From positions 8,156 through 72,155 of the IMG/VR virus record IMGVR_UViG_3300018432_000004: a stretch of 64,000 nt of DNA; one strand, written 5' to 3'. This stretch comes from a virus. Each line of letters opens with the position of its first letter. The first letter of the stretch is position 1. The translations under genes were made by a program, and so were the position numbers. Shown in pieces: positions 1 through 64,000 of the stretch. The notes below the pieces were generated by a model. The model ran no database searches. It was not told the origin of the DNA and worked only from the letters and a program-made list of their open reading frames with translations.

Positions 1-1
1 C

Positions 2-250
2 TCGCAGGAGGGCAACCGCGACGACGGGGGCGCCCGGCGCTCCGAGGTCCGCTGGGCGCTGCTGTACGGCGACGAGTACGACGACGGCACGCCGCTCGCC
101 CGCCCGCCCGTCGAGTCCGACGCGGTCGACGTCGAGCGCGACGGCCTGATCAAGCGCTACATCGTCGGGCCGCGCCCGAGCGAGTTCGACACCGGCAGCG
201 ACGTCTTCGGCGGGCAGGTCGTCCTCGTCGAGGTCGGCGACAGCGCATAA
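2..250 (+). CDS. 5'-truncated ORF, possibly head-closure/head-tail adaptor protein
   Basis: Open frame from the window edge (SQEGNRDD...VLVEVGDSA*), directly before the HK97 gp10-like gene; function from position only. Confidence 0.4.
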   Translation, partial: SQEGNRDDGGARRSEVRWALLYGDEYDDGTPLARPPVESDAVDVERDGLIKRYIVGPRPSEFDTGSDVFGGQVVLVEVGDSA

Positions 251-269
251 CTTATGCCATAACTTATGC
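246..269. repeat. Exact 12-bp tandem duplication of AT-rich near-palindrome CATAACTTATGC
   Basis: cataacttatgc at 246-257 and 258-269; GCATAA-C-TTATGC dyad at 245-257. Confidence 0.95.
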
Positions 270-817
270 CTCTGACGGACCCCGACGCCCTGCTCGACAT
301 GATCGACGCCCACCAGGGCGCCACGCGCCGCGCCGCGCGCCGGATCGCCGACGCCGGCGTCGATCACCTCGAGCGCAGCGTGCAACGCCGGACACCGATC
401 GACACGAACCCCTACCGCGCGAAGCCCGAGCGCCCCCGCGGATCCCTGCGCCGCAGCATCCACCGACGCGCCGGCGTGGACTTCGTCGTGCGGGGCGGCC
501 GCGAGTCCTACCGCGGCACCGTCGAGACGTTCGACCCGATCGCCCGCTACGTCGAGTTCGACACGCCGCCGCACATCATCCGCCCGCGCACGCCCGGCAG
601 GCGCCTGCGCTTCCAGTCGCGCCACGGCTTCGTGGACCGCGACGGCGAGTTCCACCCGCCCGGCACCTGGATCACCGTCACGGAGGTCAAGCACCCCGGC
701 ACGAAGGGCTCCCACATGTTCACCCTCGGCGCGTGGGCCACCGAGCGCGAGTTCCGCGCCTACGCCCGCGACCCGCTCGCGCGCTGGAAGCATGAGGTCG
801 AGTCCGTCCACACCTAG
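266..817 (+). CDS. HK97 gp10-like neck/tail-completion protein
   Basis: RTPIDT..GSLRRSI, ARYVEFDTPPHIIRP..LRF..VKHPGTKG motif pattern; position upstream of the tail genes. Confidence 0.7.
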   Translation: MPLTDPDALLDMIDAHQGATRRAARRIADAGVDHLERSVQRRTPIDTNPYRAKPERPRGSLRRSIHRRAGVDFVVRGGRESYRGTVETFDPIARYVEFDTPPHIIRPRTPGRRLRFQSRHGFVDRDGEFHPPGTWITVTEVKHPGTKGSHMFTLGAWATEREFRAYARDPLARWKHEVESVHT

Positions 818-873
818 TCTCCGCTTGACTCCGAGACTACCCCGGCGCTACAGTGTGCGGCACAAGGCAACCC
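815..873 (+). promoter_or_regulatory. SigA-type promoter with conserved operator/leader motif (copy 1)
   Basis: TTGACT 825-830, 18-bp spacer, TACAGT 849-854, then GTGCGGCACAAGGCAACCC; TAGTCTC/GAGACTA inverted repeat (815-821, 833-839) around the -35. Confidence 0.8.
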
Positions 874-898
874 CCGCCCAGCACGAAGGAGCCGCAAG

Positions 899-1117
899 AT
901 GACCGCAGACCCCCTCTTCACCGCCCCGCAGACGATCCCCGGCCAGCTCGCGATGGCGACCGACCCCGTCGAGGTCGACGCGCACATCGGCGACGCCCGC
1001 AACGGCGCCACCGCGATGGACCGGCTGGAGGACGCGCTCGCCGCAGGCGTCCCGATCGCCGCTCTGCTCGCGGCGCAGACCGACCGGCACGCCGCGATGG
1101 GGTACCGCTTCTCATGA
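899..1117 (+). CDS. Hypothetical protein, 72 aa (moron gene 1)
   Basis: GAAGGAG RBS at 885-891; GC3-rich codons; coupled to the next gene by ATGA. Confidence 0.7.
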   Translation: MTADPLFTAPQTIPGQLAMATDPVEVDAHIGDARNGATAMDRLEDALAAGVPIAALLAAQTDRHAAMGYRFS

Positions 1118-2625: not shown

Positions 2626-4125
2626 GTGGCGCAGCTACTCAACGCACCCGACGAGGAGATGATCCTTCCCGGCTCGGGGTTCTACTTCGAGGTCGACCAG
2701 CCGGCCACCTTCCCGGTCTCGGCGGGCTCCCGCGTGCTCGTGCCGTTCACGGCCAACTGGGGCCCGGTCAACGTCCCGGTCGTCCTCGCGAACTACCGCG
2801 AGTACGTCAACGGCGGCGTGCGCAACGGGCAGCGCTTCAGCGGCTTCGGCCCGGCCGACACGTCCGGGCGCCGTCGCGTCCTGCACGCGTTCCTCGGCGA
2901 GGGACTGCCCGGCAAGGGCGGCGCCGGATCGGTCGCCGCCGTCCGCATGGCGACCGCGGCGGCAGCGAAGGCCGCGCACACCTTCAACAACTCCACGCCG
3001 GCGCCCGCGTTGACGATCACGGCGCGCTACGAGGGCACCCGCGGCAACGGCTTCGGCTTCACGCACCGCCCCGGCGCCGAGGCCGGAACCGACGAGTTCG
3101 TGCTGATCGAGGGCGGCCGCGAGAAGGAGGTCTACCCCTACCCCGAGACGAACGTCGCGCAGCTCGCGGCGGACATCAACGCGACGACGACCTCGCTCAT
3201 CACGGCCGCGTCGGTCATCACGGGGGTCGCGCTCGCCGACGTGTCGAACGTGGCGCTCACCGGCGGCAACGACGGCTCCGGCCTGCTCGTCGGCGACTGG
3301 ACCGCGTTGTTCGACGCGCTCGCCTACGAGCCGTTCGGCGTCTTCGCCGCCGCCGGCCTGACCGACGCCGGGATCCTCGCCGCGCTCTACGCGTGGCAGG
3401 AGGAATCCGAGGCGCTCGGCAAGCCGTTCATGGTCGTCGAGGGCGGACCGGCCGCCGAGGGGTTCAGCGCGCACAAGACGCGCGCGACCGCCCGCAACAA
3501 CTCCAACGTCATCGTGTTCGGCACCGGCAGCATCGGCGACACCGTCCTCAGCGGCGACGGCACGGAGATCGTCATCTCCACGGCCGAGGCCGCCGCTCGA
3601 GTCGCGGGCGCGGTCGCGCGCCGCGGCGAGGCGCTCGACATGGTGAACGTCCGGTTCGCCGGCTGGCGCGCGATCGCCGGCGCCAACCGCTCGCAGGCCG
3701 AGATCGCCGCCTCGTCGGGGATGACGCTGCTCACCCGTGACGGCGACCCCGACGCCCCGACAAAGATCGGGCTCGGCGTCACGTCCTACTCCGTCGGCAC
3801 CCTCGAGCGTCCGCTGTGGCACTACTCCAACGTGAAGTTCGTCCGCACCGACCACGGGCTCGTGACCGACATCACGGCCGACCAGGAGTTCGGCGACCTC
3901 ATCGGCGAGATGGGCGTCGGCGAGCGCGCCCGCGACATCGTGCTCGGCCGCGCCACGGAGATCGTCGCGGAGCGCATCCGGCGCGGCATCCTGCAGCCGC
4001 GCACGACGGTCATGCTCGACCCCGACGTCCCGATCGACGACAACTCCGACGAGATCGCGCTGGCCTACGACGTGTGGGACGTTCGCGGCCTGCGCAAGAT
4101 CCGCAACCGCATCCGACTGCACTAG
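2626..4125 (+). CDS. Contractile tail sheath protein (XkdK-like)
   Basis: 499 aa; PGSGFYFE, VPFTANWGPVN, TARYEGTRGN, LTGGNDG, sheath-like C-terminus. Confidence 0.9.
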   Translation: MAQLLNAPDEEMILPGSGFYFEVDQPATFPVSAGSRVLVPFTANWGPVNVPVVLANYREYVNGGVRNGQRFSGFGPADTSGRRRVLHAFLGEGLPGKGGAGSVAAVRMATAAAAKAAHTFNNSTPAPALTITARYEGTRGNGFGFTHRPGAEAGTDEFVLIEGGREKEVYPYPETNVAQLAADINATTTSLITAASVITGVALADVSNVALTGGNDGSGLLVGDWTALFDALAYEPFGVFAAAGLTDAGILAALYAWQEESEALGKPFMVVEGGPAAEGFSAHKTRATARNNSNVIVFGTGSIGDTVLSGDGTEIVISTAEAAARVAGAVARRGEALDMVNVRFAGWRAIAGANRSQAEIAASSGMTLLTRDGDPDAPTKIGLGVTSYSVGTLERPLWHYSNVKFVRTDHGLVTDITADQEFGDLIGEMGVGERARDIVLGRATEIVAERIRRGILQPRTTVMLDPDVPIDDNSDEIALAYDVWDVRGLRKIRNRIRLH

Positions 4126-4134: not shown

Positions 4135-4734
4135 GTGGCCGAGCCCGCAAACGACGGCAACATCCGCATCTCCGGCCGATTCGGCGAGGTGTTCATCGTC
4201 CAGCGCGCCCTCGTCTTCCCCGGCGGCGGCGAGCGCATCCCCGGCCCGCCGGTCGGCCTCAAGCTCATGGAGGTCGAGTCGATCGAGGCGACGCAGGAGC
4301 GGACGTTCGTGGACGTCAACCTGCCCGGCACGGGCGAGGTCGGCAGCAAGCGCAGCAGCATCTCGCGCAACGGCACGATGACCGTCCAGCACATCACGAC
4401 GGAGTGGCAGCAGTACGTCAACGCCGTCCAGTTCACCGGCACGCTGCGCGAGCGCCGGCGCGCCCGCGACATCGGGCAGCGGCTCGACGGCAAGCTCGTC
4501 CTCCAGATCTGGAATGACGACGACGCCGCCCTCGGCGCCGAGGGCTGGCAGGCGTCCGGCGTCGACATCGGCCGCCTGACCGTCGGCTTCTCGCAGGACG
4601 ACCTGCTCACCCGCGAGCTGCCCTACCGCTTCGACGACCTCAAGTGCATCCGCGGCTTCCAGCGCCTCGGCGGTCAGATCGACGCCGTGACCGGCCTGCC
4701 GTCGATCGAGTACACCGTCGGCGCTCCGGCCTGA
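4135..4734 (+). CDS. Tail tube protein (XkdM-like)
   Basis: Follows the sheath; ISGRFGEVFI..GSKRSSISRNGTMT..RELPYRFDD pattern. Confidence 0.75.
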   Translation: MAEPANDGNIRISGRFGEVFIVQRALVFPGGGERIPGPPVGLKLMEVESIEATQERTFVDVNLPGTGEVGSKRSSISRNGTMTVQHITTEWQQYVNAVQFTGTLRERRRARDIGQRLDGKLVLQIWNDDDAALGAEGWQASGVDIGRLTVGFSQDDLLTRELPYRFDDLKCIRGFQRLGGQIDAVTGLPSIEYTVGAPA

Positions 4735-4853: not shown

Positions 4854-5411
4854 ATGCCAGCCGATCCGTCGCCCGAGGGCGCCGACGCCGTGAAGGACGC
4901 CGCGACGAACCCGAGCCCGAGCCCGCAGGTCGCCGCGAGCGCCCTCGCCTTCTTCATGGGGGACGCGCCGCCGCCCGGCAGCACCCCCGACGACCACTTC
5001 CCGCTATCGATCGACTTCGGGACCGTCGCGCGCCCGAACTTCCAGACCTGCACGTTCCGGCCGCTCGACAACGAGGAGCTCGTGAAGTGCGAGGAGCTCG
5101 CCACGGTCAAGGACGACGCCGGCCAGATCACGCGCATCGACCCGTTCACGCGGTGGTCCTACGTCTACGCCTACGCGTGCATCACCCCGGACCTCGACGG
5201 AGTACTCCGGGCGCGCATCGAGAAGGGCGACACCGTGAACCCGAAGACGGGCAGGCCGTGGGTCGATACCGCCGACCTCGTGCGGCACGTCTTCCGCAAG
5301 CAGCCCGGAGTACTCCAGCAGGCGTCGCACGCGATCGAGGAGCGCTCGCGCCTCGGGCAGGAGCGCGGGAGCGCGGTCCGCGAGGTCGAGGCGGGAAAAG
5401 GCTCGTCCTAG
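4854..5411 (+). CDS. Tail assembly chaperone (XkdN/gpG-like)
   Basis: GAGGAGG RBS; between tube and tape measure; ends just after a slippery heptamer. Confidence 0.8.
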   Translation: MPADPSPEGADAVKDAATNPSPSPQVAASALAFFMGDAPPPGSTPDDHFPLSIDFGTVARPNFQTCTFRPLDNEELVKCEELATVKDDAGQITRIDPFTRWSYVYAYACITPDLDGVLRARIEKGDTVNPKTGRPWVDTADLVRHVFRKQPGVLQQASHAIEERSRLGQERGSAVREVEAGKGSS

Positions 5412-5729: not shown

Positions 5730-8700
5730 ATGCCAATCGCAACCGCCAGCTCGGCCTACGTCCTCGAGGACCGCGCGAGCCCCGCCCTGCGCGGCATCCG
5801 GCAGGAGGCGGTCCGTACGACGGCCGCGCTGCGGGGCACCGCCGACGCCGGCGACAAGATCGGCGCGCCCGCGCAGCTCCAGCGCCTCGAGCGCTTCGAG
5901 AAGCGCCTCGGGTCCGTAGCGCGCACGGCGGAGAACATGAGCGGGCGCGTACAGCGCACCGTCGGACACATGGAGGGCGTGATCCGACGCGACACGCTCA
6001 AGGCCGAGGCGCGCATCACCGCTCTCGGCGGGCGCATGGACGAGCTCGCGCGCAAGCGCGCCGCACCGCGCGTCGACCTGGACGGCTACGCGGTCACGCT
6101 CGCGCAGATCGCGAGCCTGGACCGCGCAATCGCCGCGCTCGGGCGCCGCACGGCCACGATGGGGGTCGGAACCACCGGCGGCGGCGCGGCGGCGGCTGCC
6201 GCAGGCGGCGCGGGCCGCGCCGCTGGCCGCTCCGGCGCGTTCATCGGCTCGGGCGGCGTCGGCTTCGGCACGACCAGGCGCGGCCTCATCGCCGGTGCGG
6301 CCGTCACGGCGCTGCCGGTCGTCAGCGCCCTCACGGGCACGATCCTTCCCCTCGCGGGGTCGCTGAGCGGCGCAACGGTCGCGGGGGGCGCCACAAGCCT
6401 CGCAGCCGGCGGCGCGCTCGCCGCCGGCATCGGCGCCGTCGTGTCGGTCGCGAAGCCCGCGAACGCCGCGGTCAAGGAGCTGCGCAAGGAGCAGGAGCGC
6501 TACACCGAGGCCGTCCGCGCGTACGGCCCGGCGAGCGAGCAGGCGCTCGAGGCGCAGAAGGCGCTCGACGCGCAGGTCCGCAAGTCGCCGGCGGGCGCGC
6601 GGAACCTCATCCGCGAGCTGGACGCGCTCACCGGCCGCTGGCGCCGCGTGACGCAGGCCGGCCAGACGGACATCCTCGGCCTGCGCGCCGGCGCCGCGCA
6701 GCGCGTGCGCTCGGCCTCCCCGTTCCTAGGCGAGCAGTCCAACCGCGCCGCCGGCGCCGTGCGCCGCGAGGGCCTCAACTTCACCGACTGGGCGACGAGC
6801 CCGGCGGGGCTCATCATCGTCCGCGACCTCACCGACGCGTTCGTCGACAACCTCGACGAGGCCGAGGGCACCCTGGAGAACATCGCCGGCACGTTCGGCA
6901 ACATCGCGCGGGCGTCGCGGCCGTTCTTCGACGAGGGCATGGACTTCCTCGAGCGCTGGACCGGCGGGTGGGAGCACTCAACCCGCGACATAGGTGAGAC
7001 GCGCCGAACGATCGGCGGCTACCTCAACGACCTCAAGGCGTGGGGACGACTCGGCGGCGCCGGCTTCGATCTGATCCGCGACCTCATCATGCCCGGCCGC
7101 CAGCAGGGCACGAGCGCCGTCGAGGACCTCACGATGCAGCTCCGCGAGTGGGACGACTGGGCGAAGCGCAACCCCGAGCGCATCCGCCGCTTCTACCGCG
7201 ACAGCATCGACGGCACGAAGGAGCTGGCCGGCTTCATCGGCGTCATCGCCCGCGACCTGCACGAGGTCGGGCAGCTCCTCCTGCCGATCCTCAGCCGCTT
7301 CGCGCAGCTCGGGCAGCTCGCCGGCGGCGCCGGCCTGCTGTTGCCGACGCTGCTGCGCCTCGGCCTCGGCCGCGCGATGGGCGGGCGCGGCGCCGGCGGC
7401 GGCGGAGCGGGAGGCGGAGCGGGAGCAGGCGGCTCCCCGATAATCGTGGGCGGTCCAGGACGGGCCGCAGGCGCCGCGCCGCGCACCGACTGGACCGGCT
7501 GGACCGGAGGCACCGCCGCGCGCCCGACGAGCAGGCTCGCAGGCGCCCGCCAGCGCGCCGTAGGCGGCGCGCGCTCGGCCGGACGGTTCGCAGCCCCGGT
7601 AGCGGGCATCTCGGGCGTGCTGGGCGCCGCGGGCACGCAGGGCGACCTCAACCAGCGCGTGCAGGGCGGCGTGTCGGCGCTCACGTTCGGCGCGCTGCGC
7701 GGGCCGACGACATCGGCGCAGGCGCGCGAGCAGGGCGAGGCGCGCGCGATCGGCGACGTCGAGCGCCTCAACGTCCCGCGCTCGCCTGCGGACTACCGCC
7801 GGCAGATCGCTCGCCTCGAGCGCCAGCGCGCGGCCGCGCGTGCGAAGGCGGGCCCCCCCGATCGTGCCGGCAGCATCGTCGACAAGATCCCGGTCATCGG
7901 CGGCGCGTCGAAGGCGATCGGCGACACATTCTTCGGCGACGACGAGGCGGAGGCGAGGCGCAACGCCGCGGCCGTCAAGAAGTACACGGCGGCGATCCGC
8001 GAGCTGCGCGCCGAGCAGCGCTCCTACCGCAACGAGCAGGACCGCCGGAAGGGCGTCGCGTCGCAGGCGCACGGCGGCGCGCTCGCCTCCAGCCTGCAGG
8101 AGGGCTTCGGCACGCTGCGCCGCCACGAGGGGCCCGAGGCAGCGCTGCAGCAGACCGTCGACAAGACCGTCGCGAAGATGCGCCAGATGCGCCCCGAGGG
8201 CGCGAAGATCCTCGGCGAGTCGATGCTTGAGTGGGGGCGCACGATCGCGCGCGGCAACCCCCGCATGCAGGCGATCGTGGCCGACATGACCAGCTCGATC
8301 GAGCGGCGCTTCGCGCGGATGGGCAAGCGCGTCGAGGTCGTCAACGGGCGCATCCTGACGGGCTCGCGGTCGGAGTGGCGGCAGATCAGCAACGCGCTGT
8401 CGATGCCCGCAGAGGAGGCGCAGCAGCGCGTCACGAAGGCGTTCACGGCGATTCAGCGCGAAGCGATCGGCTCGCTCAAGTCGATGGGGTTCAGCTCGTC
8501 GGAGGCGACGGCGATCGTCAAGGGCCGCGAGTCCGGCGGCGACAAGGGACGCGCCGCCGACTACGCCGTGAAGCAGGGCCCCGACAGCTACCAGGCCGGC
8601 GTGGTCGGCGGTCAAAAGGCGGGACCGCCGTCGGCGCCTAAGCGCGCGCGCGGCGGCCGGATTCCCGGTCAGGGCCTCGCCGACAAGGTCCCGTTCGGCG

Positions 8701-10136
8701 ACAGCATCACGGCGCCCGGCGAGCTGTGGATCGCCAACCGCCATACCGAGCGGCGCGTGGACCGGATGCTCGAGCCGTACGGCACGACGCTCGCCGGCGA
8801 GATCGAGGGCGAGACCGACCCGCACGGGTCGGTGCTGCGCGAGAGGCCGCGCCTCGGGCGAGGCGGCCGCGTGCGCCGCGACGCCTCGGGCGCCAACGTC
8901 CAGGGCGTAGACGTGAAGGGGTCGAAGCCCGGCTTCTCCGTGTTCATGGATCACTTCCGGCGGCTGTTCGGGCACGATCTGTACGTCATGTCGGGCTTCC
9001 GCGGCGGCTCGCGCGTGGCGGGATCGGGACGCGTGTCAAACCACGCGTCCGGCGACGCCCTCGACATCTCCAACCCCCGCAGCGCCGGCGGCACGCCGCA
9101 GAGCCCGCCGCCGCGCACCGGCCTCGACGAGCTGCACGGCTACATCCGGGCGAACATTCCGTCGCCACCGACCCGCGACCTGCTCTGGCGCACGACCACC
9201 GGCGGCAACCACTACAACCACGTGCACTGGGGCGCGGACCCGAGCGTCACCGCGAGCATCGGCGCGGCCCGCGCCTACGTGGCGGGCCTCCCCGAGGCCG
9301 GCGACGTGTCCGCCTACGGCGGCGTGGCGCTCGGCGGCGACTCGACCGCTGCCGCGCGGTCGATCCGACTCAAGCGCCGGCGCTCGGGGATGCGCGGCGT
9401 GCCCGGCGCGATGGCAGACCGCGCGATGAGCGGCTACGCGACCGGCCTCGAGCGCCGCGTCAACCGCAAGCTGGGCAGCGGCGCGGCGGCGGGCATCAGC
9501 GGCGTGAGCACCGGCGGCGGCAGCGTCGCCGAGCTGATCCGCGAGGTTGGCCTGCCGTCGATCTTCAACGCGATCGTCCGCGCCGAGTCCAACAACAACC
9601 CGCGGGCGCGCAACCCCTCGGGCGCCAGCGGGCTCGCGCAGATCATGATGCCGTTGCACGCCGGGCTCGTGGCGCGCTACGGCGGCGACGTCTTCGACCG
9701 CCGCACAAACCTGCGCGTCGCGAAGCACCTCTACGACGAGTCGGGGCTGTCGCCGTGGGCGGCGTCGCGGCACGCCTGGGGGTCGGCGCTCAACCGCCGC
9801 GAGCGCGGCGGGCGGGTCGGGTGGTACGGCCGGGGCGGCGAGGGCACCGCGAAGCGTCCGACGCTCATCGGCGTCGGCGACGCGCCCGGCGGCCGCGGAG
9901 AGGACTTCAAGGTCACGCCCCGGCGCCTCGGTCCCCCGAGCAGCCGCGCCGGCGCGCGCGGCACCGGCGGCACCCGCGGCCTCGGCAACGTCACAATCCA
10001 GAGCATGACCGTGCACTGGCAGCGCGAGGGCGACCTCAAGAAGGCGATCAAGGCCGAGGTTCACCAGGCGTTCGCCGAGCTCGCCGACGAGCTCGACGAC
10101 GGCGTCGACGCCGACGAGGACGCCCTGATCCGCTGA
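5730..10136 (+). CDS. Tape measure protein with C-terminal LAS/M15-like peptidase and lytic transglycosylase domains
   Basis: 1468 aa, Ala/Gly-rich helical; SNHASGDALD...HYNHVH and IVRAES..NPRARNPSGASGLAQIM motifs. Confidence 0.9.
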   Translation: MPIATASSAYVLEDRASPALRGIRQEAVRTTAALRGTADAGDKIGAPAQLQRLERFEKRLGSVARTAENMSGRVQRTVGHMEGVIRRDTLKAEARITALGGRMDELARKRAAPRVDLDGYAVTLAQIASLDRAIAALGRRTATMGVGTTGGGAAAAAAGGAGRAAGRSGAFIGSGGVGFGTTRRGLIAGAAVTALPVVSALTGTILPLAGSLSGATVAGGATSLAAGGALAAGIGAVVSVAKPANAAVKELRKEQERYTEAVRAYGPASEQALEAQKALDAQVRKSPAGARNLIRELDALTGRWRRVTQAGQTDILGLRAGAAQRVRSASPFLGEQSNRAAGAVRREGLNFTDWATSPAGLIIVRDLTDAFVDNLDEAEGTLENIAGTFGNIARASRPFFDEGMDFLERWTGGWEHSTRDIGETRRTIGGYLNDLKAWGRLGGAGFDLIRDLIMPGRQQGTSAVEDLTMQLREWDDWAKRNPERIRRFYRDSIDGTKELAGFIGVIARDLHEVGQLLLPILSRFAQLGQLAGGAGLLLPTLLRLGLGRAMGGRGAGGGGAGGGAGAGGSPIIVGGPGRAAGAAPRTDWTGWTGGTAARPTSRLAGARQRAVGGARSAGRFAAPVAGISGVLGAAGTQGDLNQRVQGGVSALTFGALRGPTTSAQAREQGEARAIGDVERLNVPRSPADYRRQIARLERQRAAARAKAGPPDRAGSIVDKIPVIGGASKAIGDTFFGDDEAEARRNAAAVKKYTAAIRELRAEQRSYRNEQDRRKGVASQAHGGALASSLQEGFGTLRRHEGPEAALQQTVDKTVAKMRQMRPEGAKILGESMLEWGRTIARGNPRMQAIVADMTSSIERRFARMGKRVEVVNGRILTGSRSEWRQISNALSMPAEEAQQRVTKAFTAIQREAIGSLKSMGFSSSEATAIVKGRESGGDKGRAADYAVKQGPDSYQAGVVGGQKAGPPSAPKRARGGRIPGQGLADKVPFGDSITAPGELWIANRHTERRVDRMLEPYGTTLAGEIEGETDPHGSVLRERPRLGRGGRVRRDASGANVQGVDVKGSKPGFSVFMDHFRRLFGHDLYVMSGFRGGSRVAGSGRVSNHASGDALDISNPRSAGGTPQSPPPRTGLDELHGYIRANIPSPPTRDLLWRTTTGGNHYNHVHWGADPSVTASIGAARAYVAGLPEAGDVSAYGGVALGGDSTAAARSIRLKRRRSGMRGVPGAMADRAMSGYATGLERRVNRKLGSGAAAGISGVSTGGGSVAELIREVGLPSIFNAIVRAESNNNPRARNPSGASGLAQIMMPLHAGLVARYGGDVFDRRTNLRVAKHLYDESGLSPWAASRHAWGSALNRRERGGRVGWYGRGGEGTAKRPTLIGVGDAPGGRGEDFKVTPRRLGPPSSRAGARGTGGTRGLGNVTIQSMTVHWQREGDLKKAIKAEVHQAFAELADELDDGVDADEDALIR

Positions 10137-27561: not shown

Positions 27562-27584
27562 GCTACAGTGTGCGGCGCAACCCC
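27562..27584 (+). promoter_or_regulatory. Promoter/operator/leader motif (copy 3)
   Basis: gctacagtgtgcggcgcaacccc upstream of Ku. Confidence 0.8.
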
Positions 27585-27605
27585 TACGGCTTCGGAGGCC
27601 ACCAC

Positions 27606-50631: not shown

Positions 50632-51068
50632 CCGCGCGCCGATGGTTCGCAGCGATCACGCCCGTCGCGGTCGCGATCGCCGCCACCTCGAGCGGCCACG
50701 ACCTCGTCGACGCCGTCAAGGTCGAGGCGTCCCGCGCGCAGCGCGACGGCTGCCGAACGAAGGCGTGCCGCGTCCGCGTGCTGTGGCGCCACTACCGGGC
50801 GCACCCGATGCCGGCGTGCACCTGGAAGCCGGAATCCGGCTGGGATCCGCGCACCGGCGAGTCGTTCCACGGGCGGCCGTGGGCGCTCGGGCGCTACCGC
50901 GTCGTCAACCCCTCGAGCGGAGCCGGCGGCAAGTTTCAGTTCCTCCCCTCGACGTGGCGCAGCGTCGGCGGGCTCGGCCTGCCGCAGCACGCGACGCGCG
51001 TGCGCCAGGAGGATCTCGCGCGCCGCCTCAAGCGTCGGGATGGGACCGCGCCGTGGGTGAACTGCTAG
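50628..51068 (+). CDS. Secreted Rpf-like/lytic transglycosylase protein
   Basis: Signal-peptide-like N-terminus; [35 protein letters not shown]. Confidence 0.75.
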
Positions 51069-51505: not shown

Positions 51506-54038
51506 CGGCGGCATGTTCGGCGCCGGCCTCGGGCGGCAGCTCGTCGAGGCCGCAGCGAAGCGCACGCTCGGCGTCGACATAGGCGAGGAGCAGACGCTCC
51601 GCAGCAAGCTCGTCGAGGCGGTCCAGGACCTACGCCTCGCCGATCGCGCGAACCGCCGCCTCGGGATGCTCATCCTCGGCGCCGCGTCGCGCTTCACCAG
51701 CGGGCAGGACGCCGACTCGATGGACCGCCTCTCCGTCGCCGACCGCGTCCGGTCGATCTCCCGCGTCGACAGCCACCTGTTCTACGCCGTGCGGCTGCGC
51801 ATCGCGTTCTGCTTCGGCCGCGGCGTCACCCCGCCGAAGGCCAACGACGACGAGGTGCAGGTCGTCCTCGACGACTTCTGGAAGGCGCCGGCGAACCGCG
51901 CCGAGATCACGAGCGCCGAGGCGCAGTGGCGCTTCGGCAAGGACCTTTTCGAGGTCTGCAACGTCTACACCGTCGTGTTCGCCGACGGCATGGACGGCCG
52001 CGTCCTGCTCGCCGGCCTGCAGCACGATCAGGTCGTCGATGTCGTCCGAGACCCGAAGGTATGGGGGCGCGTGCTGTGGTACGTCGTCAAGGAGTTCGTC
52101 TACGAGTGGGACTTCGAGCACCATCGCCCGAAGCCGAACCCGAAGCAGCGGACGGTCTACTACGAGGCGTTCGACGGCTTCGAGGCGCTCGAGGTCGAGC
52201 TGAAGCAGGGCCGCGCGATGCCCGCGAGCCCGTCGCCCACGCTCATCCGCCCCGGCCGCATCCTGCACACGGCGATCAACCGCGGGCGCGAGCAGGCGTT
52301 CGGCGAGCCGGAGATGCGCACGAACCTGCGCTGGGCCGCGTCGTTCGCGGACCTGCTCGCCGGCCAGGTCGAGAAGGCGCGCGCCGCGCAGCAGTACCTC
52401 GTCAAGATCACCGCGCAGGGCGCCAGCACCGAGCAGGCGCTCACCGACGCCGCCATGCGCGCCGTCGGGCGCCGCTCCCCGCTGTCGGCGAGCTTCGAGG
52501 ACCTCGTGCCCGACCCCGACCCCGACCTGCCGCGTCCCGCGCGGCCCGGCTCGCAGTGGTGGCAGAACGAAGCGATGAACGCCGAGCCGTTCACCCTCGA
52601 CGCCGGCAGCTCCAACGCGAAGCAGGACATGGACGCCGCATCCGCCGCGTTCGCGACCGGCACGAACTTCCCCGCGCACTACTTCACCGGCGACCCGGGC
52701 AGCCTCGCCGGCGCGATGGCCGTCGAGCTGCCGGTCCTCAAGCTGACCGACATCGACCAGGAGGTCGCGCTGTCGCCGCTGCGCAAGCTGTGCGACCTGC
52801 GCATAGCCCGAGCGATCAAGGTCGGGCTGCTCACAGAACGCCGCGAGCCGACCGAGGAGGAGATGCTCGCCGGCGCCGAGGTCGACGCCGACGGCCTCGT
52901 CGAGCGCGACCTGACCTACCAGCTCAACATGCCCGAGGCGCTACGGCGCAACCTCCCCGAGCTCATGGCCCTCGCGACCGACACGCAGAGCACGTGGGAT
53001 CCGATGGGCCAGTCCGAGCCGCTCCAGCGCGCGCTGCTCGGATTCGTGTTCTCCGAGCTGCTCGACTTCCCCGACTCCCCCGCCCTCATCGAGCGCATCT
53101 TCGCCGAGCAGGAGCAGCCGATGGGCGGCGGCGAGGCCGAGGACGACGGGACCGATCCGACGACGTCGACCGGGCCCGACGGCAAGCAGCACCCGCCCGA
53201 CAACCCGATGGGCGCCAAGCGGCAGAGCGCCGCCGTCGAGTCCGCGCTCGCCGTCGTGTGGGCGCGCCTGCAGGATCCCGAGGACGTCCTCGCCGTCGAG
53301 CTGGGCGAGCGGCTGATCGAGGCCGCGACGATCACGCCGAAGCCGCACGACATCCCCAACGCGTTCGGGCAGGGCCAGGACTTCGGGCGCGGCGGCCGCT
53401 TCCTGGGCAAGTTTCACCCCGGCGGCATGAGCCCCGGCGCGGGGCGCCCCAAGAGCATCGTGCACCGCCTCGCAGACAAGGCCGTCGCCGCGGTCAAGGC
53501 CGGCGCGAACAAGGCGTTCCCGAACGCCGAGCCGCGCTACGACGACTCCGCCCTCGCGCAGTACGAGGCGCAGGAGATCGCGTACGCCCTCGCCGATCCC
53601 GGCGCCGAGCCCGGCGCCGAGGAGTCGTGGCTCAAGGACGTCAAGGCCGACGCCCGCCGCGCGAACTCCGCGCTCAACGCCGCGCTCGGGCCGGACCTCG
53701 CGAAGTACATCGATCGCAAGTGGGGGCGCGAGGCCGGCGTCCGGCGCGACCTGCTCGACGGCAAGCTCACGATCGACGACGCGACCGACCTCGCCTACGA
53801 GCAGTACATGGAAGGCGAGAACCGGCGCGCGCAGCGCGAGAACCTGCGCGACCTCGACTACGGCCTCAACCGCAAGTCGATCCCCTGCTTCTCGTGCGGA
53901 CGCTTCAAGAAGCGCCCCTCGGACGTCTGCGGCTACTGCGGCGACGATCCTGTCCCTACGGCGAGCGGCTCATCATCGAACCGCTTCGCCAGTGAAACCG
54001 CGGCGTTCGACCGCGCGTACGGCTACGGAGGAAACTGA
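51489..54038 (+). CDS. Portal protein with long C-terminal extension (start could be ATG 51513)
   Basis: FCFGRGVTPP..VLDDFW..N, INR..FGEPE..LRW portal-like core; upstream of the MuF-like gene; C-terminal CxxC..CxxC. Confidence 0.75.
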   Translation: MPPSRSGGMFGAGLGRQLVEAAAKRTLGVDIGEEQTLRSKLVEAVQDLRLADRANRRLGMLILGAASRFTSGQDADSMDRLSVADRVRSISRVDSHLFYAVRLRIAFCFGRGVTPPKANDDEVQVVLDDFWKAPANRAEITSAEAQWRFGKDLFEVCNVYTVVFADGMDGRVLLAGLQHDQVVDVVRDPKVWGRVLWYVVKEFVYEWDFEHHRPKPNPKQRTVYYEAFDGFEALEVELKQGRAMPASPSPTLIRPGRILHTAINRGREQAFGEPEMRTNLRWAASFADLLAGQVEKARAAQQYLVKITAQGASTEQALTDAAMRAVGRRSPLSASFEDLVPDPDPDLPRPARPGSQWWQNEAMNAEPFTLDAGSSNAKQDMDAASAAFATGTNFPAHYFTGDPGSLAGAMAVELPVLKLTDIDQEVALSPLRKLCDLRIARAIKVGLLTERREPTEEEMLAGAEVDADGLVERDLTYQLNMPEALRRNLPELMALATDTQSTWDPMGQSEPLQRALLGFVFSELLDFPDSPALIERIFAEQEQPMGGGEAEDDGTDPTTSTGPDGKQHPPDNPMGAKRQSAAVESALAVVWARLQDPEDVLAVELGERLIEAATITPKPHDIPNAFGQGQDFGRGGRFLGKFHPGGMSPGAGRPKSIVHRLADKAVAAVKAGANKAFPNAEPRYDDSALAQYEAQEIAYALADPGAEPGAEESWLKDVKADARRANSALNAALGPDLAKYIDRKWGREAGVRRDLLDGKLTIDDATDLAYEQYMEGENRRAQRENLRDLDYGLNRKSIPCFSCGRFKKRPSDVCGYCGDDPVPTASGSSSNRFASETAAFDRAYGYGGN

Positions 54039-56192: not shown

Positions 56193-58861
56193 CCACGAGT
56201 TCCGCCAGCCTCGATCGTTCGCCGAAGTCCAATTGGGTGCAGGAGGCCGGCGGGCTGCCCCCGTACGTCCGCAAGATCGCCCGCGCGATCCACGAGAAGC
56301 GCGGGATCCCGCTGTCGCAGGCGATCCCGTTCGCGATCGGGCGCCTGAAGAAGTGGGCGGCAGGCGGCGACAACGTGACCGCCGAGACGCAGGCGAAGGC
56401 CGCGGCAGCGATCGCGGCGTGGAACCGCCTCAAGTCGAAGGCCGGGAAGCTGACCGAGGCCGAGGCGCTCGGAGGCGTCCAGGTCCGCGACGAGAACCTC
56501 GGCGTGCCGACCCCGCTGCTCCTCGCGTGGATCGACGAGCTCGACGACGCCGAGCAGCTCGTCGAGGCGGCGCTCGGCGGACACGACGAGAAGCTGCACC
56601 CCCGCGACCTGCTCGGCCGGTTCCGCACGAAGGTCGGCGCGCTGAAGGTCGGCGAGTCGGCAACACTGCCGGACGGCCGCAAGGTCGTCAAGACCGACCG
56701 CAAGGCGTTTGAGGGCGACAACTACCACGACGTGTACGACGAGAACGGTCGCATTCAGGCCAGCCAATCAAGCGCTCGGCTGGCGGCGGATTCAGCGGCG
56801 ACACGCAGCGCGCAGTCCACCGACCCCAAGTCGCTCGGCGGCGCGACGAAGTACCGCAACCTCGACGCCTTGCCGGCGAAGTCGGATAGCAAGCCCGTCC
56901 GCGACAGCCCGGCCGGCTCGGGGAAGTCGTTCGCCGAGGGCGTGTCGGCGGCGTACAACGCGAACGCCGCGAACGCCGCGAAGGCGAGCCGCCCCGAGGG
57001 GGCATCCGACGAGCGCGAGCGGGCTCGGGCGTACCAGGCGCTCGACCCGCTCAAGGTCGGCGACTCCGCGAAGTGGGGCACGCTGACCGTCAAGCGCCTG
57101 CCGGACGACTCGCAGGGCCGCGCGCAGTTCGACGTGGACGGCAAGACGATGGGCGGCTCACGGACGATCTCACGCATGGTCGAGAAGGGGCGCGCAACGG
57201 CGACCCCCGCCCGAGCGAACACCCCGAGCGCAGACCCGGCCACCCGCCGACGCAACCGGACGACGGGCACGGTGCCGAAGTCGCAGAAGGGTGGCCCGGC
57301 GGCGGGGGGGCTGGACACCACGCGCGGCATCTTCCGCAAGTACGACGACGCCGGCCTGCTAGTCGCGCTCCGCGACCCGCAGCTCCAGGGAAAGAATCGT
57401 CGGCAGGCGGAGCGGGAGGCGCGCGCCCGAGGGCTCATCTCGGAGGACAAGACGCCGCCGCCGGGCGCGATCGTCCGTGGCAACAAGACCTACATGCCCG
57501 GCGATCCCGACTACGAGCGGCTGAGCAAGATCGTCGGACCGCCCGAGCCGGGAAGCCCGGCCGCGCGCAGCATGGCGAAGGTCGGCCAGACGGCCGGCGC
57601 ATCCGCCACGGTGCACGAGGGCAGGACCGTCAAGGCGGGCGACAAGGTGATCGTCGGTGAGCCGGGCAACGTGACCCGCGACGTGACCGCGACCGTGACG
57701 AAGATCGAGGGCGGCAAGGTCCACGTCAAGGGCCCGCACGGCACGAGCTCGCACGATCCCGCCGACGTCCAGGCCACGAGCACGAGCGCCAGCGCCGCCG
57801 CCGCCGCCGCAGACCTGCGGCAGCAGCTCAAGCGCGTCAACGCGACGCTCAAGTCCGGGAAGGGCCCGCAGGCGTACGCGAGGCGCCGCAAGGCCGAGAT
57901 CGAGCAGCAGCTCGCCAAGCTCGTCGAGGCGGCGACCCCGCCGACCCGCGTCAACCTGCGCACGAAGGGCGGGCGCATGGTCAACGTGTCGGTCGCGCAC
58001 GCCCGCCGGATCCACCTTCAGGGCAACGCCGCGGCCGATCAGCGGCCGGGCGCGAAGCCGCCCGCTGGCGCCCGCGACGGCGACTTCGAGTCGAAGCATC
58101 CGCGCGGCGGCAAGGGCTCGACGTCGGGCGGCAAGTTCGTCAAGAAGGGCAGCACCGGGACCGAGGTCCGTGCGATCCAGCGCCGCGTCGGCGCCCGCGT
58201 CGACGGAGCGTTCGGCGACAAGACGGCTGCGGCTGTCCGCGCCTTCCAGCAGAAGCACGGCCTCAAGGTCGACGGCATCGTCGGCAAGCAGACCGTCGCC
58301 GCGCTCCGCGGCCGCCGCGACGCCAAGCGCGTCGGCACCGGCGAGCTGACGAAGAAAGACCGCGAGTACCTCGCAGGCCACATCAGGGGCACCGGCCGCC
58401 AGACCCGCGGCAAGCTCACCAGCCTCGTTGAGGCCGTCACCCCGCCGCAGTTCCTCGAGCGCGTCCAGGCGCTGCAGCCCGGCGAGATCGCGCGGCTGCC
58501 CGACGGAGGCGCCGTCAAGCACCACAAGTCCGAGGACGGCCGCGACCTCTGGACCGCCGGGCGCCCGACGTCCTACGGCGAGAACGGCCTGAGCTGGCGC
58601 GAGCAGCACCGCACCCCCGAACTCGCCGTCGCGGACGCTCTGAGCGCCTCGGCGGGCTCGACGGACCCCGCGTCGCTCGGCGGCCCGAACCGCTTCGGCG
58701 GCTACACCCGCATCGCCGTCAACGGCCGACCCGCCCGCTTCGTCGGCGTGGACGCGAACTGCTCGCCGCTCGTGCGCTACGACGGCGCGAGCGTCGAGCC
58801 CGTCGCGGTCACGTGGCCCGAGCTCGTGCTCGCGCCGCGCCTCGTCGAAGCTCACCGCTGA
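56189..58861 (+). CDS. 890-aa modular head-associated protein with peptidoglycan-binding domain and internal repeats
   Basis: N-terminal NWVQEAGGLPPYVRKIA..KKWAAG domain; two HPR..G(R/K)F motifs; PGBD (GTEVRAIQ..VDGAFGDKT..FQQKHGLKVDGIVG). Confidence 0.8.
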   Translation: MTTSSASLDRSPKSNWVQEAGGLPPYVRKIARAIHEKRGIPLSQAIPFAIGRLKKWAAGGDNVTAETQAKAAAAIAAWNRLKSKAGKLTEAEALGGVQVRDENLGVPTPLLLAWIDELDDAEQLVEAALGGHDEKLHPRDLLGRFRTKVGALKVGESATLPDGRKVVKTDRKAFEGDNYHDVYDENGRIQASQSSARLAADSAATRSAQSTDPKSLGGATKYRNLDALPAKSDSKPVRDSPAGSGKSFAEGVSAAYNANAANAAKASRPEGASDERERARAYQALDPLKVGDSAKWGTLTVKRLPDDSQGRAQFDVDGKTMGGSRTISRMVEKGRATATPARANTPSADPATRRRNRTTGTVPKSQKGGPAAGGLDTTRGIFRKYDDAGLLVALRDPQLQGKNRRQAEREARARGLISEDKTPPPGAIVRGNKTYMPGDPDYERLSKIVGPPEPGSPAARSMAKVGQTAGASATVHEGRTVKAGDKVIVGEPGNVTRDVTATVTKIEGGKVHVKGPHGTSSHDPADVQATSTSASAAAAAADLRQQLKRVNATLKSGKGPQAYARRRKAEIEQQLAKLVEAATPPTRVNLRTKGGRMVNVSVAHARRIHLQGNAAADQRPGAKPPAGARDGDFESKHPRGGKGSTSGGKFVKKGSTGTEVRAIQRRVGARVDGAFGDKTAAAVRAFQQKHGLKVDGIVGKQTVAALRGRRDAKRVGTGELTKKDREYLAGHIRGTGRQTRGKLTSLVEAVTPPQFLERVQALQPGEIARLPDGGAVKHHKSEDGRDLWTAGRPTSYGENGLSWREQHRTPELAVADALSASAGSTDPASLGGPNRFGGYTRIAVNGRPARFVGVDANCSPLVRYDGASVEPVAVTWPELVLAPRLVEAHR

Positions 58862-61407: not shown

Positions 61408-61761
61408 ATGGCTGTCACGTCCCCGCCCGCGTCAAACCTCGCGGAGTACAACGCGCCGGCGCCGGAGCGCTCCCTGACGCAGCGCCTCGACGCGCTCGAG
61501 CGCGCGAACGTCGTACGCACGAAGCGCGCCGAACTCAAGCGCGACCTCAAGGGCGGCCGCAAGTCGATCCACCGGCTGCTCATGGACCCCCCCGACTACG
61601 TCGAGACCGCGAAGGTCTTCGACATGCTGCTCGCGGTGCCGAAGGTGGGAAGGGTGAAGGCGAACAAGGTCCTCACCCAGTGCCGCATCTCGCCGAGCAA
61701 GACGATCGGCGGCCTGTCGCAGCGCCAGCGCGACGAGCTCGTCTCGCTGCTGCGCCGATGA
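61408..61761 (+). CDS. mihF: Actinobacterial integration host factor (mIHF/sIHF) homologue
   Basis: ALERANVVRTKRAELKRDLK..AKVFDMLLAVPKVGRVKANKVL..ISPSKTIGGLSQRQ (H2TH fold pattern). Confidence 0.88.
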   Translation: MAVTSPPASNLAEYNAPAPERSLTQRLDALERANVVRTKRAELKRDLKGGRKSIHRLLMDPPDYVETAKVFDMLLAVPKVGRVKANKVLTQCRISPSKTIGGLSQRQRDELVSLLRR

Positions 61762-62216
61762 ACCTTCGCGAGCGCTTCGACGCGAAGGTCGACCGGACGC
61801 CGGGCCACGGTCCCGAGGGCCTCTGCCACGTCTGGACGGGCACGACTACGCGCGGCGGCTACGGCATGTTCTGGCTCAACGGCCGGATGCAGCTCGCACA
61901 CCGCGTGGCGCGCTTCCTCGCGACCGGCGAGTGGCCCGCCTTCAAGGTCCTGCACTCGTGCGACTTTCCGCCGTGCGTGCGCGAAGACCACCTGTTCGAC
62001 GGCACGCAGGCCGACAACGTCGCCGATTGCGTAGCGAAGGGCCGAGCGCGCGGCGGTAGCCAACCGGGCGAGAGCAACGCGCACGCGAAGCTCACCGCCG
62101 GGCAGGTCGACAAGATCCGCGAGGCGACCGGGACGCTGCGGTCGATCGGTGAACGCTTCGGCGTGAGCGAATCGGCCGTGTCCATGATTCGCTCCGGCCA
62201 GAGGTGGCGCCGATGA
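61758..62216 (+). CDS. HNH homing-type endonuclease with C-terminal HTH
   Basis: CHVWTG..GYG..AHRVA..VLHSCDFPPCVREDHLFDGTQADN. Confidence 0.9.
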   Translation: MNLRERFDAKVDRTPGHGPEGLCHVWTGTTTRGGYGMFWLNGRMQLAHRVARFLATGEWPAFKVLHSCDFPPCVREDHLFDGTQADNVADCVAKGRARGGSQPGESNAHAKLTAGQVDKIREATGTLRSIGERFGVSESAVSMIRSGQRWRR

Positions 62217-62296
62217 GCCTGCGAGGACTGCTGGACCTGCTGCTGTTCCTGACGACCGGCGGCGACGAGGGCCGCGCCGAACGGCGGCACCGATGA
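62213..62296 (+). CDS. 27-aa coupled peptide
   Basis: ATGA overlaps at both ends. Confidence 0.4.
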   Translation: MSLRGLLDLLLFLTTGGDEGRAERRHR

Positions 62297-62982
62297 CCGC
62301 CGCCGACCCCCTCGACGTCGCCGCCGGCGACGATCGCGCGCGGCCCGTCCTGCTCGGCGAGGCGCCGTCGCGCGGCGGCGACCGCTTCCACGCGTTCCCG
62401 CTGTCGGGGCGGCCCGCGCGGGTGCTCTGCGAGTTGGCGGGGATCCCGCCGCAGGCCGAGGGCTCGCAGTACGGCCGGTGGACGTGGGCGCTGTACGAGC
62501 GCTTCGAGTGCGCGAACCTGTTCGACCGCTACGCCGACGCGACGCCGTGGTCGACGCCCGCCGCGCGCGTCCGCGCCGCCGCGCTGCTCGACGAGCTGAA
62601 ACCGGCAGGACCGGGCGTGCTGCTCCCGAGCTACAACGTGCCGCTGCCCGTCGTCGTCTGCCTCGGGCGGCGCGTCCAAGCCGCCCTGTTCGGCGCCCTC
62701 GACGGCGAGGTGCACGTCAAGCCGAGCGCGCCGGCGCGCTGGGGCACCGGATGGTTCGGCGACTTCGGCGTGTGGGCGCGGCCGTGGCACATCTACACCC
62801 CGATCGTCCGTCCCGGCGGCGGCGACGTCCCCGAGCGGCGCTGGGCGCCGCACGTCGTCACGATCCCGCACCCCTCGGGACTCAACCGCCTGCTCAACGA
62901 CGAGGCGCATCGCGCACGCTGCGGGGAGGTCCTGCGCCGAGCGCTTGAGCTGGCAGCGCCCACCGATACCGTGGGCGCATGA
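62293..62982 (+). CDS. Uracil-DNA glycosylase superfamily protein
   Basis: VLLGEAPS motif A, VVVCLGRRV, IPHPSGLNR motif B. Confidence 0.75.
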   Translation: MTAADPLDVAAGDDRARPVLLGEAPSRGGDRFHAFPLSGRPARVLCELAGIPPQAEGSQYGRWTWALYERFECANLFDRYADATPWSTPAARVRAAALLDELKPAGPGVLLPSYNVPLPVVVCLGRRVQAALFGALDGEVHVKPSAPARWGTGWFGDFGVWARPWHIYTPIVRPGGGDVPERRWAPHVVTIPHPSGLNRLLNDEAHRARCGEVLRRALELAAPTDTVGA

Positions 62983-63449
62983 GCTCCGTCCGCCTGCGCA
63001 CGTGCGGCAACTGCGCCGCCCGCTTCCGCTTCGCTCAGAACCTCCCGACCATCGGCCCGTGCTGCCCGATCTGCCTCAAGCCGGTCAAGCCGGTCGCGCG
63101 GCTCCGGCAGATCGCGGGCACCCCGACGCCCGGCCTCGACGCCGTGTACGTGGACGCGTCCTTCCGCGAGGGCGTCGCCGGCCTCGCGGTCGTCGGCGTC
63201 CTCGGCGAGTACACCCGCCGCGTGTCCGTCGGCACGAGCAGCCTCGCGGAGCGCTGGGCGCTCCAGATGGCGATGGAGATCGCCTCCGGCCTCAAGCGCC
63301 GCGACCTCGTGTTCCGCTCGGACGCCTCCAGCGTCGTGTCGGGCTTCGGGGGACGCCCGTCGATGGGCTGGACCTTCGAGCACGTCCCCCGCGACCTCAA
63401 CCGCCGCGCGCACGAGCTGGCCTCCGTCGCGCGGAAGCGCACGACGTGA
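62979..63449 (+). CDS. RNase H-like (RNase HI/RVT_3) protein with N-terminal Zn ribbon
   Basis: CGNC..CPIC; VYVDASF, AERWAL, FRSDASSVV, HVPRDLNRRAHELA. Confidence 0.8.
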   Translation: MSSVRLRTCGNCAARFRFAQNLPTIGPCCPICLKPVKPVARLRQIAGTPTPGLDAVYVDASFREGVAGLAVVGVLGEYTRRVSVGTSSLAERWALQMAMEIASGLKRRDLVFRSDASSVVSGFGGRPSMGWTFEHVPRDLNRRAHELASVARKRTT

Positions 63450-64000
63450 GCGTCCTCGTCTTCGATCTGTGCCGCGGCGTGGGCGGATGGGAGGCCGCAG
63501 CCGACGACCTCGACCTGCGCACGATCGGGTTCGACATCGACGCCGACGCGTGTGCGACGTCGCGCGCCGCCGGCCTGCACAGCGTCCAGGACGACATCGC
63601 CCGCCTCGTGCCCGCGATCGTCGCCCTCGTCTACGGGCAGCCCGAGGGCATCATCGGCTCGCCGCCGTGCCAGCTATTCAGCGCGGCCGGGAAGGGCACC
63701 GGGCGGCAGATCATGGAGGAGCTGTACCGCGCCGTCGTGGACGCCGCGCGAGGCGCTACGGACGTCGAGATGGCCCGCCACCGCCGCGAGCTGCGGCGGC
63801 TGCTGCTCGCCTACCTCCGCGAGACCGAGGGCTACAAGCGGTCGCGCTCGTCGAAGCGCGCCCGCCGCAACGGGCGGCCGATCGGCCGCGAGTCGACGCC
63901 GATCCGGCGCGGCGAGCTTCGCGCGGAAGCCGACCGCATGGCCCGCAACGTGTCGCTCGTCTGGCAGCCCGCCCGCTGGGTCGCGGCGCTGCGCCCCCGC
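63446..64000 (+). CDS. C5-cytosine DNA methyltransferase (3'-truncated by window)
   Basis: FDLCRGVGGW motif I, GFDID..AC, GSPPCQLFSAAGK motif IV. Confidence 0.85.
   Translation, partial: MSVLVFDLCRGVGGWEAAADDLDLRTIGFDIDADACATSRAAGLHSVQDDIARLVPAIVALVYGQPEGIIGSPPCQLFSAAGKGTGRQIMEELYRAVVDAARGATDVEMARHRRELRRLLLAYLRETEGYKRSRSSKRARRNGRPIGRESTPIRRGELRAEADRMARNVSLVWQPARWVAALRPR

Follow-up and report, generated by a model that had tools for sequence, protein, structure and literature searches.

The stretch of DNA analyzed here, hereafter the window, comprises 64,000 nucleotides (64 kb; positions 8,156 to 72,155, or G000:C1:8156-72155) of the IMG/VR virus record IMGVR_UViG_3300018432_000004, which is a single virus contig of 73,616 bp. 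The window covers the greater part of the full genome of a tailed double-stranded-DNA phage from soil that has not been cultivated. It encodes a contractile tail of the PBSX type, packaging and head genes of the lambda type, and a copy of the actinobacterial nucleoid protein mIHF. It was found that the first 123 bases of the contig are identical to the last 123 bases. Thus, the assembly closes on itself as a circle, and the element is complete at approximately 73.5 kb. This exact repeat lies inside a C5 methyltransferase gene, in its C-terminal region.

The GC content ranges from 0.68 to 0.76 per 2-kb bin throughout the window and is 0.729 for the entire contig, as a preliminary description of the stretch had indicated in calling it very high. 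Since every reading frame is open at such GC content, genes were called via the GC content of third codon positions. The calls number 87 for the window and 97 for the entire contig; every gene is on the plus strand, and neighboring genes mostly overlap by 1 to 4 bases. A tRNA search found none. The DNA is present in only one soil-metagenome run (2018), which is probably its own source and therefore gives no independent support for the habitat.

The tail module and the virion genes

The tail genes lie between positions 2626 and 15585. The tail sheath gene (2626..4125) occupies the XkdK slot. Its product matches PHROG 279 over the full length (E = 1.7e-35) and the gp55 sheath of phiCD508 in the Protein Data Bank (PDB) (E = 2.4e-9), and it gives a weak match below the cut-off to Pfam PF17481. 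The next gene (4135..4734) encodes a tail tube protein of the XkdM family (PF09393/DUF2001, E = 7.7e-12, 45.8 bits against a cut-off of 27), which is 75% identical to its counterpart in L057, a sister contig described below. In the XkdN slot, a protein of 185 residues (4854..5411) resembles a tail assembly chaperone by its position and by an Atlas lead to XkdN/PF08890 (TM 0.50/0.61, feature score 0.92), and it has no match in Pfam or PHROG. An open −1 frame after position 5411 runs to 5719 and ends just 5′ of the tape measure gene; a −1 frameshift probably extends the chaperone-like protein to 5719. The tape measure protein (5730..10136, XkdO slot, 1468 residues) has an SLT domain at residues 1276-1315 (PF01464, over the cut-off) as well as a weak match to M15 peptidases.

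The baseplate genes follow. A protein assigned to the XkdP slot by position (10136..10933) matches phrog_380 (E = 1.3e-7) and has no Pfam match. A YqbQ/XkdQ-like baseplate hub (10935..12191) is recognized by PF24032 (E = 4.6e-18, 66.1 bits against a cut-off of 27). The XkdR slot holds a DUF2577-like protein of 94 residues (13036..13320), placed by position and by an Atlas lead to PF10844 (feature score 0.94, 207 shared features, TM 0.60/0.62), with no Pfam match by hmmscan. It is followed by a sheath initiator of the XkdS type (13320..13859; PF10934, E = 6.6e-8, 33.0 bits against a cut-off of 32.9), a Baseplate_J wedge protein of the XkdT type (13868..15043; PF04865, E = 5e-43, 147.7 bits against a cut-off of 21.1), and an XkdU or Mu gp48-like baseplate protein (15043..15585). 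The match of the last one to PF10076 is below the threshold (E = 9e-5, 22.8 bits against a cut-off of 37.4), yet S, T, and U stand in that order and the gene is at the expected position.

In summary, family matches assign the predicted proteins of the K, M, O, Q, S, and T slots, and the match for U is weak. The assignments of the N, P, and R slots are leads that come from position and the Atlas and PHROG hits given above. The XkdK-M-N-O-P-Q-R-S-T-U order given in the preliminary description thus holds, apart from one extra gene (12188..13036) which breaks the collinearity between Q and R. Its product of 282 residues has no match in Pfam or PHROG and might be a candidate spike or needle component. 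Two further genes flank the module. A tail completion or Neck1-like protein (266..817; phrog_5, E = 4.4e-5) is 66% identical to its L057 counterpart. A protein of 321 residues (15626..16591) is 41% identical over 123 residues to a Phage Tail Collar (PF07484) protein of the genome G210; identity as a tail fiber fits, since the gene stands after the baseplate genes.

The genome also encodes a large terminase of the lambda GpA type (43726..45651; PF05876, E = 1.3e-16) and a portal protein of 841 residues (51513..54038; phrog_10963, E = 1.1e-21), which is 46% identical to a protein of 622 residues in the second sister contig L058. An HK97-type major capsid protein (PF25209) is encoded outside the window at positions 5630-6721 of the contig (L001). 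With large terminase, portal, and HK97-type capsid, the full virion set of Caudoviricetes is present. The head genes are dispersed, with the terminase at 43.7 kb, the portal at 51.5 kb, and the capsid approximately 21.5 kb further round the circle; the distance from portal to capsid is 8 kb in L058. A large head-region protein with a peptidoglycan-binding domain (56237..58861; PF01471, E = 3.2e-14) has counterparts in L058 and in another contig, L051.

Is this a phage at all? PBSX and diffocin, whose tails are of the same kind, are themselves defective or bacteriocin particles, and instead of an infectious particle, the locus might encode a contractile injection system that acts extracellularly or a phage-tail-like bacteriocin, or it might be a fragment of a defective prophage. 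This is very improbable, because terminase, portal, and capsid are all encoded, the two ends of the contig join to each other with no cellular flanks, and two syntenic sister contigs of approximately 70 kb exist.

These sisters were found through the capsid protein, which has approximately 20 relatives among 5.8 billion proteins. L057 (JGI 3300065509, 70.7 kb, GC 0.74) has a capsid protein 73% identical to that of this phage, and 14 common proteins in the stretch compared have a mean identity of 61%. L058 (JGI 3300064092, 70.0 kb, GC 0.72) has a capsid protein 59% identical, and its 14 common proteins in the stretch compared have a mean identity of 46%. The modules from head to tail are syntenic in all three, with nucleotide identities of approximately 72% for L057 and 68% for L058 in the alignable parts only. 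L058 has no mIHF-type gene between the portal and capsid genes, unlike this phage. For the terminase, a search of 1.84 billion representatives returned three clusters at approximately 50% identity and 120 at E ≤ 1e-30. Single-protein scans of IMG/VR with the terminase and the capsid found no relative, and the IMG/VR capsid alignment has a single contig at 36% identity.

Close relatives are lacking among the deposited phages. A megablast search of window positions 1-25000 against 50,697 phage records, in which the window's own record may be masked, found no match at the DNA level over these 25 kb, and a tblastn search with the sheath at 1e-5 found none in the same records. Among cultured phages, no match to a hallmark protein exceeds 36% identity, with values of at most 28% for the terminase, 23% for the capsid, and 25% for the only portal match. 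As judged by these comparisons, the phage does not belong to any established genus, for which approximately 70% nucleotide identity over the genome is expected, and no known genus matches it. The preliminary description had named clustering with a known phage genus as grounds for refutation, and these searches showed no such match. The phage is one member of a small and sparsely sampled uncultivated lineage.

The mIHF gene and the host

A gene at 61408..61761 encodes a host-type mIHF of 117 residues (PF22525, 40 bits against a cut-off of 27). Residues 5-117 align with cellular copies, and the protein has the size (approximately 105-120 residues) and the S13-like H2TH fold signature of the family. 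It is 84-88% identical to the chromosomal copies in metagenome-assembled genomes (MAGs) of Solirubrobacteraceae and other Solirubrobacterales. Among 5400 matches, the top ones have 85-88% identity, and every named one is a Solirubrobacteraceae MAG. A scan of species genomes gave 46 loci, 44 of which belong to Solirubrobacterales, Conexibacter, Thermoleophilaceae, or coarsely labelled soil MAGs; the two exceptions are Arcanobacterium (38%) and a 2-kb contig in an acidobacterial bin. The nearest cellular copy is flanked by carB/pyr genes on one side and gmk-rpoZ on the other, and mIHF is thus a core gene there. Although it aligns in full length with these cellular mIHF/sIHF proteins of Actinomycetota, the phage copy stands outside the carB-mIHF-gmk-rpoZ context and has a longer branch.

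The identity falls off with distance from one family. In the GTDB family of the genome G001, which includes the Solirubrobacterales-labelled genome G002, all 101 genomes sampled have an mIHF with 57-86% identity to the phage protein, and the copies of G001 and G002 themselves reach 84-86%. Outside this family, the values are approximately 50-69% within the class, and they drop to 27-40% in 101 Actinomycetes genomes. (The unpublished genomes G008, G146, G173, and G239 of the family and G263, G271, G280, G286, and G288 of Actinomycetes enter within tallies only.) In a tree of the ingroup, the phage falls into a clade of 11 rows (support 100/98) with three MAGs labelled Solirubrobacteraceae, on a branch of 0.24 as compared with a median of 0.033. 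At the nucleotide level, identity to the G001 gene is 88.6% over 307 nucleotides, in the coding region only, and 78% at third positions. Thus, the gene came from this clade, but its capture was not recent.

The rooted tree was discarded. Ten Actinomycetes outgroup copies join the long branch of the phage itself (97/63, unstarred), a pattern expected from long-branch attraction, and the nested clade remains compatible with the data under the approximately unbiased (AU) test (delta lnL 1.94, p-AU 0.42). The rooted tree is therefore uninformative, and the host call uses the identity gradient and the ingroup tree. The nested origin is preferred because a sister position to all Thermoleophilia would not give 86% identity to one subclade as against approximately 55% to others. 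The phylogeny proposed as a check in the preliminary description therefore places the protein with Solirubrobacteraceae within the ingroup, while its outgroup-rooted placement is unstable. The Solirubrobacterales-like character that had been ascribed to mIHF is borne out by the matches, the gradient, and the ingroup tree alike.

Two Actinomycetes bins have an mIHF that is 58-61% identical to the phage protein. These copies lie on contigs of 1.5-2.9 kb (G320:C454 and G306:C10; L084, L085), group among Thermoleophilia rows, and are accompanied by a normal copy in the bin; I treated them as probable mis-binning and not as counter-evidence. Most genomes of the G001 family have a second, divergent mIHF-like copy, which is 33-42% identical to the phage protein.

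Does anything besides mIHF point to the same family? The DNA of window positions 1-20000 was compared with 251 genomes of the G001 family, and real matches were limited to two cases: six genomes match the endolysin genes at 66-73% nucleotide identity, and G210 matches the tape measure gene. The phage has two endolysin genes. The product of the first is M15/VanY-like (16656..17321), with a weak PF02557 match and 54-64% identity to an open reading frame (ORF) of G161. The second encodes a GH24 lysozyme (17727..18389; PF00959, E = 1.5e-33), which is 50-56% identical over its full length to proteins of G040, G068, G190, and G027. Both endolysins have one C-terminal domain of approximately 70 residues in common. 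When this domain (71 residues) was used alone as the query, it was found in 7 of 251 G001-family genomes and in 0 of 251 Actinomycetes genomes (Fisher p = 0.015), often in two adjacent copies as in the phage. Segments of the tape measure are 45% identical to a TMP-like protein of G210, and a segment of the fiber is 41% identical to a protein of the same genome. The G210 region is an integrated remnant (G210:C1, approximately 4236400-4250200; L067, L068) adjoining two-component-system genes, and it comprises a helix-turn-helix (HTH) protein, a Phage Tail Collar fiber, the TMP-like protein of 1347 residues, and two tyrosine integrases. The GC content of the phage (0.729) is close to that of the nearest MAG loci (0.72-0.74). 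Short matches resembling CRISPR spacers (36-47 nucleotides at 89-94% identity; window 1-20000 against the 251 genomes) were also seen. The best four lie in no repeat array, and these were dismissed as chance matches at high GC content.

The phage also encodes a muralytic protein that is Rpf-like (50583..51068; PF06737, 46.4 bits against a cut-off of 27) and has a hydrophobic segment in its N-terminal part. The translation shows C..ESG, FQF..STW, and terminal W..C motifs, and I take the first and the last of these to represent the canonical catalytic Glu and the conserved Cys pair. The preliminary description had likened this protein, too, to Solirubrobacterales versions. This does not hold. 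Only 17 relatives were found, and the nearest are on other phage contigs: a 65% identical protein on a siphovirus-like contig with SPP1_Dit and a 45% identical one on a distant relative of this phage. The domain has matches of similar identity in both groups, with 34 of 61 genomes in the G001 family and 36 of 61 in Actinomycetes. Thus, the Rpf-like protein was rejected as a host marker; it supports a host in Actinomycetota and nothing finer. In the siphovirus-like contig, a collagen-repeat gene is directly 5′ of the Rpf-like gene (L054:6877-8000), and the collagen-repeat gene of this phage (26777-27424) is far from it. The Rpf-like gene thus moves between unrelated phages.

Most likely, a bacterium of the order Solirubrobacterales (Thermoleophilia) serves as the host, probably one that belongs to the family of G001 and G002 (labelled Solirubrobacteraceae/Solirubrobacterales) or is close to it. 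The Thermoleophilia host suggested in the preliminary description is supported chiefly by mIHF and in addition by the distribution of the endolysin wall domain. Several points weigh against this call. It comes down to one captured gene and a modest enrichment. Because mIHF was not acquired recently, the phage could by now have a host other than the donor; the outgroup attaches to the phage branch in the rooted tree; and the Rpf-like gene carries no lineage signal. Many of the closest MAGs were labelled only "uncultured Actinomycetes bacterium" by the submitter, and the G001 family is tied to Solirubrobacterales solely via G002 and the labelled rows. Neither a CRISPR spacer nor a tRNA or an integrated copy was found that would link the phage to a genome, where the spacer screen covered 20 kb and a sample of genomes.

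For these same reasons (the Rpf-like domain matched equally in both classes, the non-recent capture of mIHF, the absent spacer or prophage link, and the unstable rooting), one may consider another high-GC host from Actinomycetota, such as Actinomycetes, Acidimicrobiia, or Rubrobacteria. The mIHF and lysis modules would then have been acquired by recombination with Solirubrobacterales phages or during a past host switch. I regard this as quite unlikely. The mIHF protein is far closer to G001 and G002 than to any of the Actinomycetes copies, the endolysin wall domain is absent from the Actinomycetes genomes (Acidimicrobiia and Rubrobacteria were not sampled separately), and kin of the tape measure, the fiber, and the endolysins occur in the G001 family. 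A Solirubrobacterales host thus remains preferred.

Accessory genes and lifestyle

Next to the endolysin genes are those of a RecT-like annealase (18602..19795; PF03837, E = 1.8e-7) and a PD-(D/E)XK exonuclease (20248..21624; PF12705, E = 6.9e-13). A 127-bp piece near the 3′ end of the RecT-like gene (19588-19714) is 72-74% identical at the nucleotide level to many G001-family genomes, and it may be a conserved segment of a host gene, either joined to the phage gene by fusion or common to both. A Ku-like protein is also encoded (27570..28592; PF02735, E = 3.2e-11, over the cut-off). In the mycobacteriophages Corndog and Omega, phage Ku and host LigD reportedly circularize genomes with cos ends. 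Ku is found alongside a GpA-type terminase in this phage, and by analogy, such circularization may apply here. The genome further encodes a HerA-like ATPase, a DnaQ-like exonuclease, and several HTH proteins, and no replicative polymerase was recognized among the annotated proteins.

There are four DNA methyltransferase genes (29341-31209, 35748-36995, 63446-64000, and contig positions 1857-3353 in L001). Three are of the N6/N4 type, one of which has a weak ParB_N-like N-terminus, and one is of the C5 type. The C5 cytosine methyltransferase gene is seen at 63446..64000 in its N-terminal part (PF00145, E = 7.6e-7) and crosses the window end and the contig junction. The four enzymes suggest heavy investment in restriction evasion. 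The stretch from portal to capsid (window 54124-64000 plus contig 1-5600) contains mIHF, HNH nucleases, UDG-like and RNase H-like proteins, C5 and N6/N4 methyltransferases, and a Vut_1-type transporter, and thus resembles an accessory island within the structural region. The Vut_1/YhhQ-type transporter gene (contig 446-1015, L001) is also found in L057 (L057:1078-2009) beside a PTPS/QueD-like gene. The transporter and this neighbor hint at the handling of 7-deazaguanine-type precursors or at DNA modification.

No integrase or recombinase domain was found in approximately 96 of the 97 called proteins, searched against Pfam for most and PHROGs for a few only. Likewise, neither the five closest genomes nor the 201 G001-family genomes screened yielded a terminase relative. 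Since neither an integrase nor prophage kin was found, a virulent lifestyle was taken as the working assumption; nothing of what marks a temperate phage (an integrase, a lysogeny module, or integrated relatives) was seen. This is weakened by several small ORFs and large proteins that have no annotation, some of which could conceivably represent an integrase of a non-canonical kind or part of a system for plasmid-like lysogeny. In the same host, the phage might thus be temperate or plasmid-like via an unrecognized integrase or partition system. The RecT-like protein and exonuclease, Ku, the several HTH proteins, and the weak ParB_N-like region fused to a methyltransferase would be in line with this, as would the numerous unannotated ORFs. 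On balance, such a lifestyle seems unlikely, given that tyrosine and serine recombinase domains are absent from all scanned proteins, terminase kin are absent from the 201 genomes of the candidate host family, and the sister contigs retrieved have no cellular flanks.

Taken together, it is likely that this is an uncultivated soil myophage with a lambda-type head, a PBSX-type tail, a Solirubrobacterales host, and a captured mIHF, with virulence as the working assumption. In the virion, a remote lambda-type head and packaging apparatus (GpA-type terminase, 841-residue portal, PF25209 capsid) would be joined to a contractile tail of the minimal kind known from PBSX, diffocin, and phiCD508. The tail genes would provide the sheath, a tube of the XkdM type, a chaperone extended by frameshifting, a wall-lytic tape measure, a small baseplate of XkdP/Q/R/S/T/U-type proteins, and a collar-type fiber. 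The fiber may bind the cell surface, upon which the baseplate would trigger contraction of the sheath, as in particles of the phiCD508 or PBSX type. The tube and the tape measure would then cross a Gram-positive-type wall with the aid of the SLT and peptidase domains of the tape measure, and the two endolysins, with their common wall-targeting C-terminal domain, would free the progeny. Packaging by the GpA-type terminase may be of the cos type. The chromosomal mIHF was presumably captured from the host lineage and is probably a DNA-bending accessory.

A bolder reading is possible, though I hold it to be rather doubtful. This contig and its two sisters would be the first complete or nearly complete genomes of a family-level lineage of virulent myoviruses that infect only soil bacteria like Solirubrobacteraceae, in which a lambda-type head has been joined to a Firmicutes-style PBSX tail. 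The essential mIHF of the host would have been captured and used together with Ku for a cos-ended genome or for remodeling of the host nucleoid.

Significance and comparison with known contractile tails

Solirubrobacterales are abundant soil actinobacteria. In the literature searched, no isolated phage of Solirubrobacter, Conexibacter, Patulibacter, Thermoleophilum, Gaiella, or Rubrobacter is named, and soil viromics lists, in bulk, phages predicted to infect Thermoleophilia (PMC10604447). An annotated complete genome with a defensible host call may serve as a reference for classifying related metagenomic contigs. It also yields candidate wall-binding modules of endolysins and fiber modules specific to Solirubrobacterales, and it documents the presence of mIHF, a nucleoid protein of actinobacteria, in a phage genome. 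The lineage is new, the host call is well supported, and the architecture is familiar; current views are not overturned.

How does the tail compare with known ones? The sheath, tube, chaperone, tape measure, and P-U slots are collinear with those of Bacillus subtilis PBSX/SKIN (Xkd/Yqb) and of Firmicutes myophages such as Bacillus phage BalMu-1 and Brevibacillus phages. The likeness to PBSX/SKIN is at the family level for M, Q, S, and T. The best cultured matches of the Baseplate_J protein are from Firmicutes phages and prophages, annotated as "XkdT" or "element PBSX protein", and none of the host categories listed for its cultured matches is actinobacterial. On the other hand, the identity in these matches is 28-36% only, the gene for the 282-residue protein is extra, the match for U falls short of its cut-off, and the assignments of N, P, and R are leads. 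This phage further differs from PBSX in that its head and packaging genes are of the lambda type, its GC content is 73%, and its host is most likely actinobacterial.

For the sheath and the Baseplate_J "triplex" protein, the nearest solved structures by sequence are those of the Clostridioides difficile myophage phiCD508 (PDB 9GB1, 9GB2, 9G8S; PMC11948020) and of diffocin (PDB 8V3W). In the PDB, the Baseplate_J protein matches phiCD508 gp65 with E = 9e-32 and diffocin CD1371 with E = 5.5e-21, and the tube and hub proteins have no relative among the solved structures by sequence. Both phiCD508 and diffocin have a minimal baseplate, and the similarity of either to this phage is remote. In its summary, the phiCD508 study (PMC11948020) describes a phage without enzymatic domains for penetration. 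In this respect, the phage analyzed here, whose tape measure has an SLT domain, is unlike phiCD508. Thus, a minimal contractile tail of the PBSX type, best known from Firmicutes, appears to occur in a phage of a deep actinobacterial class.

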